From: Escherichia phage Turkey3
Sequence record: PQ471515.1
DNA length: 64,000 nucleotides
Direction: 5' to 3' (one strand)
This document shows, one piece after another, positions 30,451-31,430 of the stretch; position 1 is the first letter of the stretch; each line of letters opens with the position of its first letter. Made by a program: the position numbers and the translations under genes. The notes under the pieces were generated by a model. That model saw only the letters and a program-made list of their open reading frames with translations, was not told where the DNA came from and did no database searches.

Positions 30451-31065
30451 ATGACTACATCTGAAAAGTACTGGTGGATTATGGGCCATCCTAAATTCAT
30501 CAACGGAGATATGGTTCCCCCAAGGATTGATATCGAACCACATGATGTGTGTCCAATCACAAACCGCATTGAATCATTTAAAGCTCTGAATACAAAGACA
30601 CAATTTTGGGTAGAATTCATCTCACCTATGTACGTTGAGCAAGATGATGAATGGGTACAAGCACATGATTATGAGTTAGATTGCGGTGGTGATACTTATG
30701 ATGAGGCAATTGATGAACTATACAAAAATGTGCTAAACACTTATGGTGATTACACCCAACAAGAAGCAGACGATACGTTTAATAAGGTCCATGCAGTCAT
30801 TTCTACATCATCAATTTACAATTCAACAAAAACAATTTGGGAAGAACGTCACGGGTGGAGTTCATCTGTAATTGATGCTGAAGCCAAAGAAACAATTCTG
30901 GAAGACATAAAAAATATAAAAAGTACAATAGAAGCCTTGCGTGAATTTATAAAGTCTTGTACAATAGAACAACAGAAAGAGGCAAAGATGCATTTGGAGA
31001 GTGAAGAATGTAAACTTTGGGTTCTAGAGAAATCATTTGAAAAGGGTATAGACTTAGACTTATGA
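30451..31065 (+). CDS. hypothetical protein
   Basis: Track ORF from TTG 30439; ATG 30451 after GGAG. Confidence 0.5.
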   Translation: MTTSEKYWWIMGHPKFINGDMVPPRIDIEPHDVCPITNRIESFKALNTKTQFWVEFISPMYVEQDDEWVQAHDYELDCGGDTYDEAIDELYKNVLNTYGDYTQQEADDTFNKVHAVISTSSIYNSTKTIWEERHGWSSSVIDAEAKETILEDIKNIKSTIEALREFIKSCTIEQQKEAKMHLESEECKLWVLEKSFEKGIDLDL

Positions 31066-31430
31066 ATCGTAAACTTGAGAAACTAATTGAAGAATTGCGA
31101 CGGATGCCACCAATCGAGCAAGTGGGGAGCTACAAACGTTATCGTGTGATTGCTCGTGCACTAGATAAGAAAGGTCGTGTATTGGCAACACGTACTAATT
31201 CTTACACACATACTCACCCAGTACAGAAAGGTTTTGCAATCCGTGCTGGTCGTCCACAAGGTGAATTTCTTCATGCTGAAATCTCATGTTTGCTGGCTTC
31301 TCGTGCTGAAGTTCATACTTTGTTGATTGCACGGGTAAGTAAAGATGGTATTCCAGTCCCTGCCAAGCCTTGTGAGATTTGTACGTTGGCAATTATGGAA
31401 TATGGGGTCAAAGAAATTATTCACACATGA
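31062..31430 (+). CDS. cytidine-deaminase-fold zinc deaminase (122 aa)
   Basis: HAE (LHAEISC) and PCEIC about 30 aa apart. Confidence 0.5.
   Translation: MNRKLEKLIEELRRMPPIEQVGSYKRYRVIARALDKKGRVLATRTNSYTHTHPVQKGFAIRAGRPQGEFLHAEISCLLASRAEVHTLLIARVSKDGIPVPAKPCEICTLAIMEYGVKEIIHT

Follow-up and report, generated by a model that had tools for sequence, protein, structure and literature searches.

A very small, strongly basic zinc deaminase gene in Escherichia phage Turkey3 and its large, phage-restricted family

Positions 31062-31430 of a 64,000-nucleotide stretch of Escherichia phage Turkey3 (sequence record PQ471515.1; hereafter the window) hold a genuine gene, whose product is a very small and strongly basic zinc deaminase. 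The window also encodes a canonical T4-type dCMP deaminase (Cd), and the small protein is neither such an enzyme nor a shortened copy of one: every published signature of that clade that could be checked failed. The gene is already present in public phage genomes, loosely annotated, and its fold is well known. What is new is that it represents a distinct, abundant and phage-restricted clade of minimal, strongly basic deaminases, which probably belongs to the division with a C-terminal hairpin and often lacks strand 5. We tentatively favour a phosphate-bearing deoxycytidine, dCMP or dCTP, as its substrate, feeding dTMP synthesis. The two genes are:

31062..31430, + strand, stop codon included: coding sequence of the minimal deaminase, 122 residues, supported by the open reading frame (ORF), a PF00383 match and an AlphaFold2 (AF2) model

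21178..21660, + strand: canonical T4-type dCMP deaminase, 160 residues, with PF00383 at 78.5 bits and the PADLOC dCTP-deaminase domain at 2e-24

The small ORF runs on the + strand from an ATG at 31062 through 122 codons to a TGA at 31428-31430. The source of the window belongs to Asteriusvirus, the group of 121Q/PBECO4-like E. coli jumbo phages, and the deaminase region is 96-98% identical to the Asteriusvirus coliphages vB_Ec-M-J, CMSTMSU and Ecwhy_1 and approximately 88% identical to 121Q. Because the codons differ from those of the 121Q homologue by 42 synonymous but only 7 non-synonymous changes, the reading frame is under purifying selection. The protein is 99% identical to EcMJ_225 of vB_Ec-M-J, there named 'dCMP deaminase', and the corresponding genes in related records carry the names 'dCMP deaminase', 'CMP/dCMP-type deaminase domain-containing protein' or 'hypothetical protein'.

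The elements of the predicted active site are:

31197..31226, + strand: N46, which ends strand 2; then Y48; and H52-P53-x-Q55, where an inserted helix (53-61) begins

31272..31280, + strand: H71-A72-E73, a zinc ligand and the catalytic glutamate at the start of helix 2, aligned with the HAE of the canonical Cd

31332..31334, + strand: R91, closing strand 3; a loop of 10 residues then leads to PCxxC

31368..31382, + strand: P103-C104-E-I-C107, whose two cysteines are zinc ligands where helix 3 begins

The initial annotation, made from the sequence alone, had described a 122-residue protein with HAE and PCxxC about 30 residues apart, and had named zinc ligands that fail to align with the cytidine deaminase (CDA) fold as the observation that would speak against it. 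Both points come out in its favour. The spacing from H71 to P103 is 32 residues, inside the roughly 25-35 residues that characterize the fold, and the ligands align with it in the AF2 model and in hhalign. The model has a mean predicted local distance difference test (pLDDT) score of 90.3 and places, in order, helix 1, strands 1 and 2, the inserted helix 53-61, helix 2, strand 3 (86-92), helix 3 and strand 4. H71 lies just before helix 72-80 and C104 just before helix 105-113, with C107 in its first turn. The result is the three-layer alpha/beta/alpha arrangement, in which helices 2 and 3 present the zinc ligands at their N-termini. The chain ends at T122 directly after strand 4, so that strand 5 is absent.

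Profile comparisons point to the same fold. The window protein itself passes the PF00383 cut-off only marginally (26.2 bits against 25), but 24 of 24 aligned relatives match PF00383, the best at 8.3e-16, and the window protein also matches phrog_174 at 1e-11. When the family profile is aligned by hhalign to the canonical Cd of the window, the probability is 95% with an E-value of 1.7e-8, and N, HAE and PCxxC fall in register. A single-protein search of the sequences of solved structures returned only noise, whereas the corresponding profile search found dCMP deaminases as the closest matches (S-TIM5 at 3.5e-6, S. mutans at 5.4e-6 and T4 at 2.9e-5). Taken together, sequence and model identify the small protein as a predicted CDA-fold zinc deaminase, stripped down by the loss of strand 5.

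HAE and PCxxC are essentially invariant in the 24 relatives and in an alignment of 199 family members across which residue conservation was counted: E73, C104 and C107 are kept in all 199, and H71 and P103 in 198. In the expected mechanism H71, C104 and C107 would hold the zinc, the zinc would activate water, and E73 would shuttle the proton. From the intact catalytic residues in a confidently predicted fold we infer that the protein is a catalytically competent, zinc-dependent hydrolytic deaminase. A second set of residues is specific to the family and conserved almost as strongly, namely N46 (197/199), H52 (183/199), P53 (183/199), Q55 (179/199) and R91 (196/199), and the positions of A59, G63, G96, A101 and T122 are also conserved. 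N46, Y48 and H52-P53-x-Q55 probably line the substrate pocket, and R91 would be placed to bind phosphate. The C-terminus is more variable: about half of the 199 members end within two residues of the C-terminus of the window protein, while most of the others extend 8-15 residues further.

The family is large and restricted to phages, being essentially absent from cellular genomes. A profile search of 1.84 billion cluster representatives gave at least 1070 clusters (at 50% identity) at E ≤ 1e-10, with lengths of 96-166 residues among the 150 matches listed. A pattern scan confirmed 121 loci on viral contigs, and a similar but narrower scan of 185,579 cellular genomes gave 2 matches, both on small contigs of metagenome-assembled genomes. 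Homologues are found in RaK2-, GAP32- and phiKZ-like jumbo phages, Aeromonas phages, Xanthomonas phage DES1, Cobetia phage Carin-5 and T4-like cyanophages. The proteins are strikingly basic, with a median isoelectric point (pI) of 9.64, 97% of members above 8.5 and a median net charge of +9, compared with a pI of 7.06 for the canonical Cd and a median of 6.59 for neighbouring proteins of 80-160 residues. This charge is position-specific, since K or R occupies at least 50% of the sequences in 15 alignment columns. The genomes that carry the gene are AT-rich: when 80 viral-contig loci were dereplicated to 32 groups, the GC fraction was 0.27-0.46 in 32 of 32, and it is 0.348 in the window.

The small protein shares several features with dCMP deaminases such as ComEB/T4 Cd, the S-TIM5 dCD (4p9c) and the PBCV-1 bi-DCD (7fh4): HAE, PCxxC, an Asn ending strand 2, an insert preceding helix 2, a strand 4 that ends in an aromatic residue or His, and a phage setting with ribonucleotide reductase (RNR) and thymidylate synthase. 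The strand 4 residue is the penultimate H121 in the window protein; across the family, 55% of members have Y there and 30% have H. Thymidylate synthase has been reported for the Asteriusvirus genus (PMC11895373, PMC7247149). Enzymes of the T4 Cd type deaminate dCMP and are controlled allosterically by dCTP and dTTP. The likeness does not extend to what defines the clade. Published signatures of the dCMP deaminase/ComE clade include a bihelical insert that carries another zinc site, NxxP, NA after HxE, and TxxxT (Iyer et al. 2011, PMC3239186, Table 1). The canonical Cd has NGTP, HAEMNA and TLYTT as well as the second-site zinc cysteines. In the small protein, by contrast, the insert consists of one helix, 53-61, and no Cys occurs among residues 1-70, so there is no second zinc site; N46-S-Y-T stands in place of NxxP; HAEISC (family consensus HAEI[S/A]A) stands in place of HAExNA; strand 3 reads H85-T-L-L-I-A-R91 without TxxxT; and both helix 4 and a parallel strand 5 are missing. 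In addition, BLASTP finds no pairwise similarity between the small protein and the canonical Cd, and PADLOC gives no match for the small protein. The initial annotation was thus right to separate it from the T4-type enzyme as an additional, minimal deaminase of the CDA fold.

Where the family does belong is best seen in its longer members. An AF2 model of the 134-residue relative P0046 (pLDDT 91.6) also contains the inserted helix, and it ends in strand 4 (119-124), two residues, and strand 5 (127-132), forming a tight antiparallel hairpin without helix 4. Because longer relatives end in this hairpin, we tentatively place the family with the cytidine and blasticidin-S deaminases, within the division that has a C-terminal hairpin. 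The 10-residue loop between strand 3 and PCxxC agrees with this placement, and so does the Foldseek ranking, which is headed by tetrameric cytidine deaminases and blasticidin-S deaminase (4wif at 6.8e-5, 2z3j at 1.7e-4). The CDD/CDA and blasticidin-S enzymes share with the family a size of approximately 120-135 residues and a loop of about 10 residues, and their antiparallel strand 4-5 hairpin is present in the longer members, while strand 5 is absent from the window protein and from about half of the family.

Within this division the family nevertheless stands apart from the CDD/CDA clade: it lacks PCxxCR, and the window protein has no strand 5. Specifically, the window protein has PCEICT, and the family position after the second Cys is mostly S, Q or E, with R outside the three commonest residues. 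The Glu that ends strand 5 in the CDD/CDA signature is impossible in the window protein since the strand itself is missing. The HAE of the window protein is the minority H form, the usual form in CDD/CDA and blasticidin-S deaminases being CAE. Unlike these enzymes, the family is very basic and found only in phages, and the window protein has neither strand 5 nor a C-terminal tail. Cytidine deaminases bind ribose with a Glu two residues after the Asn, a position at which the window protein has Y48. The features of TadA/ADAT2 (E before strand 1, EPC(l)MC, and two additional helices beyond strand 5 that carry conserved E and F) are not found in the window protein.

Precedents for losing strand 5 exist in the XOO_2897 and Bd3614 deaminase clades (Iyer et al. 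2011, PMC3239186). MafB19, a toxin clade of the HxE type, shares with the small protein an N at the end of strand 2, HxE, and a G at the start of strand 4, and PF14437 (MafB19-like) weakly matches 5 of 24 family members, although the window protein reaches only 13.3 bits against a cut-off of 27. The MafB19 motif '+xxCxxC' is also not reproduced, as K102 of the small protein lies one and not two positions before the first Cys. Furthermore, the XOO_2897, Bd3614 and MafB19 domains belong to secreted polymorphic toxins with immunity genes or are fused to other domains, whereas the small protein is a free-standing phage protein and has no delivery domain.

A different comparison is with the mSCD-type PF00383 deaminases, which like the small protein are small, single-domain phage proteins annotated as dCMP deaminase. 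Their real substrates are 5-methyl-dCTP and single-stranded DNA (ssDNA), with no activity on dCMP, and mSCD-B5, at 154 residues, has a prototypical dCMP-deaminase fold nearest to the PBCV-1 bi-DCD (bioRxiv 10.1101/2024.12.05.627091). The mSCD genes adjoin thymidylate synthase homologues; no such neighbour was found among the family loci sampled.

These comparisons alone do not select a substrate: in keeping with the initial annotation, which had left the question open, profile and fold do not choose among cytidine, dCMP/dCTP, tRNA-adenosine, guanine and blasticidin-S deaminases. What tips us, tentatively, toward dCMP or dCTP is the combination of invariant pocket loops, profile matches to dCMP deaminases, company with nucleotide-metabolism genes, one phage in which the gene is the only deaminase, and AT-rich carriers. 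N46, H52-P53-x-Q55, R91, G96 and A101 are conserved in phages whose hosts differ greatly, which points to a single small substrate common to all. The phage in question is DES1, where the small gene (23050-23352; complete genome) is the only CDA-fold gene and occurs together with ThyX and class I RNR. The GC content of DES1 is 43.2%, that of its host approximately 65%. In such a pathway the sugar would be bound by N46 and the phosphate by R91, H52 and K102. Deamination would yield dUMP or dUTP for thymidylate synthase, tilting the pyrimidine pool away from C and towards T, as would suit phages with genomes far more AT-rich than those of their hosts. The enzyme would act alongside the canonical Cd or Dcd or, in some phages, instead of it. 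There is precedent for phage PF00383 enzymes that use triphosphates rather than dCMP (bioRxiv 10.1101/2024.12.05.627091).

Several observations weigh against a dCMP or dCTP substrate. The family-wide basicity is unusual for a soluble nucleotide enzyme. The small gene also coexists with a canonical Cd in the window and on one other viral contig (L022, below), and with a Dcd-type dCTP deaminase in Carin-5, which encodes thymidylate synthase as well (as seen in its first 50 kb and the region of the small gene). The small enzyme is therefore not simply filling a missing step. In addition, the gene usually lies among small hypothetical genes rather than beside thymidylate synthase, the association with AT-rich genomes in the 32 locus groups comes without a control set, and no characterized or assayed member of the family was found in the literature searched.

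The excess of positive charge makes a second explanation a serious though somewhat less probable rival. In this view the protein would deaminate polynucleotides, its small, open and highly basic build allowing it to edit C (or A) in RNA, tRNA or ssDNA. Variants of this idea include the possibility that it recodes host tRNA anticodons towards A/U-ending codons, or that it damages host or competitor nucleic acid. The position-specific charge would be accounted for, and so would the open, truncated build. In cytidine and dCMP deaminases C-terminal elements close the pocket, and in the window protein strand 5 and every one of these elements are missing. All remaining proteins of the HxE type in the hairpin division are described as enzymes of nucleic acids (DYW, and toxin clades including MafB19), some of the toxin clades lacking strand 5 (Iyer et al. 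2011, PMC3239186), and phage PF00383 enzymes acting on ssDNA are documented (bioRxiv 10.1101/2024.12.05.627091). A polynucleotide substrate would also fit the coexistence with dedicated nucleotide deaminases and the location among small hypothetical genes, as well as a tRNA synthetase domain nearby in 2 of 32 groups and the RNA ligase, polynucleotide kinase and CCA-adding enzyme of the window. However, the pocket loops are strongly conserved, while the target-recognition loops of nucleic-acid deaminases usually evolve fast. A DNA mutator active in replication would harm the genome of the phage itself, no conserved adjacent RNA- or DNA-binding domain or immunity gene was found in the 32 locus groups, and the window contains no tRNA gene, the tRNA scan and the Rfam scan both being empty. 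If the explanation nevertheless held, which we consider rather doubtful, the family would be the smallest natural class of nucleic-acid deaminases: free-standing, phage-encoded, basic proteins of approximately 100-125 residues that edit RNA, tRNA or ssDNA. One speculative role would be C to U conversion in host tRNA anticodons, so that the tRNA pool of a GC-rich host then decodes the A/U-ending codons of the phage; another, equally speculative, would be action on single-stranded DNA in infection.

In the window CpG is depleted (0.76) and TpG/CpA enriched (1.25), and CpG is below 1 in 31 of the 32 locus groups with a median of 0.82. Because there is no control set, we do not take this as evidence of self-editing; the pattern may be an ordinary signature of AT-rich genomes and not a deamination footprint.

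Less likely again is a different small molecule: free (deoxy)cytidine for salvage by thymidine kinase, a modified dC nucleotide such as 5-methyl-dCTP or 5-methyl-dCMP, or a cytosine-containing immune signal such as cyclic CMP (cCMP). The Foldseek ranking, the loop between strand 3 and PCxxC and, in longer relatives, the strand 4-5 hairpin are all of the cytidine-deaminase type, and the window does carry a thymidine kinase gene. Asteriusviruses also encode a C5-cytosine methyltransferase (PMC7247149, PMC11895373), and phage deaminases selective for 5-methylcytosine (5mC) exist (bioRxiv 10.1101/2024.12.05.627091). On the other hand, the PCxxCR motif and the strand-5 Glu of the cytidine-deaminase clade are lacking, Y48 replaces the ribose-binding Glu, and the thymidylate synthase neighbour typical of the 5mC-selective enzymes was not found in the locus groups. 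Nor would such a substrate explain the high positive charge, and the cCMP idea is without direct support.

That the protein is a catalytically dead structural or regulatory remnant is very improbable: loss of strand 5 and the very small size would fit, but the zinc ligands, catalytic Glu and substrate Asn are invariant or nearly so across the 199 members, and the gene is under purifying selection. Least probable of all is a redundant, merely shortened paralogue within the T4-type dCMP deaminase clade, for in spite of the GenBank name 'dCMP deaminase' in related phages, phrog_174 and the profile matches to solved dCMP deaminases, the failed clade signatures (Iyer et al. 2011, PMC3239186), the absence of BLASTP similarity to the phage's own Cd and the absence of a PADLOC match already contradict membership.

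Across the 32 locus groups no neighbour of the small gene is conserved, the best recurrence being 3/32 groups by sequence clustering and 2/32 by Pfam family, although the neighbours are often replication or nucleotide-metabolism genes. A canonical dCMP deaminase is next to the small gene in 2 of the 32 groups. In L022 (IMGVR_UViG_3300042691_018303) a 102-residue family member at 8007-8315 is followed by a 145-residue HAEMNA-type dCMP deaminase at 8312-8749, the two being translationally coupled through an ATGA overlap, and the pair also occurs in L024-L026, all within one group of uncultured phages. This adjacency and overlap suggest distinct, possibly coupled roles for the two deaminases. The synthetase domain found near the deaminase in two groups is of the tyrosyl/tryptophanyl type, and in L009 the gene lies directly downstream. 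The surroundings are mostly hypothetical genes in the phiKZ-like SL2, DES1, Carin-5, cyanophage ACG-2014f and Aeromonas phage 4L372XY. DES1 (L091/L092) also encodes thioredoxin, and gamma-glutamylcyclotransferase, ATP-grasp and glutamine amidotransferase genes lie near its small gene.

In the window itself, the further features are:

30410..30432, + strand: terminator-like hairpin just 5' of the acidic/deaminase gene pair, from a consensus scan only

30451..31065, + strand: upstream gene for an acidic protein of 204 residues, whose stop overlaps the deaminase start through ATGA; phrog_16370 match

31427..31648, + strand: downstream ORF of 73 residues, whose start overlaps the deaminase stop through ATGA; EcMJ_226 in vB_Ec-M-J

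32935-32957: second terminator-like hairpin, from a consensus scan only

51756-52337: thymidine kinase

The acidic protein (pI 4.53, net charge -21) has no Pfam or PDB match and is translationally coupled to the basic deaminase; every group of RaK2-like jumbo phages keeps its gene directly 5' of the deaminase gene. It might serve the deaminase as a partner or act as its inhibitor. We rejected the stronger idea of an obligate partner, since the pairing is limited to RaK2-like phages and the N-terminal half of the acidic protein also occurs elsewhere, in Vibrio and Shewanella phages, genera that are not named in the summary of deaminase matches. The downstream ORF has no Pfam or PHROG match; more generally, all Pfam scores for the immediate neighbours of the deaminase are below threshold and every PHROG match is of unknown function. 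The small genes between the two hairpins may form one transcription unit, but matches to a consensus are not functional evidence.

Further away, nrdD sits 1.7 kb downstream of the deaminase. The window also holds an RNA-repair and translation set consisting of an RNA ligase (6326-7465), a polynucleotide kinase (8291-9220), a CCA-adding tRNA nucleotidyltransferase (58098-59210) and an S30EA ribosome hibernation factor (55688-56017). The names of these four genes were transferred by tblastn from the annotation of vB_Ec-M-J, which is 98% identical. A Sir2-like gene (24071-24736) and a NUDIX gene (24736-25284) are adjacent with a 1-base overlap and are followed by PhoH at 25978-27414, an arrangement that may be linked to NAD or ADP-ribose metabolism in infection. 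Relatives differ locally in length: in vB_Ec-M-J approximately 1.3 kb without annotation separates nrdG from the large gene that comes next (L001, 20686-22000), whereas in the window (35685-35762) this DNA is missing and an ORF of 898 residues comes directly after nrdG. Several other relatives also have extra DNA within the 29-34 kb region.

If the small enzyme does act on dCMP or dCTP, many AT-rich phages would carry an unrecognized and very compact route from C to T nucleotides, and the blanket annotation 'dCMP deaminase' would hide a separate enzyme class. If it acts on nucleic acid, it would be a widespread phage editing enzyme, and at 100-125 residues an attractive miniature scaffold for base editors. 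Because the protein is small and single-domain and comes in hundreds of natural variants, the question is directly testable.

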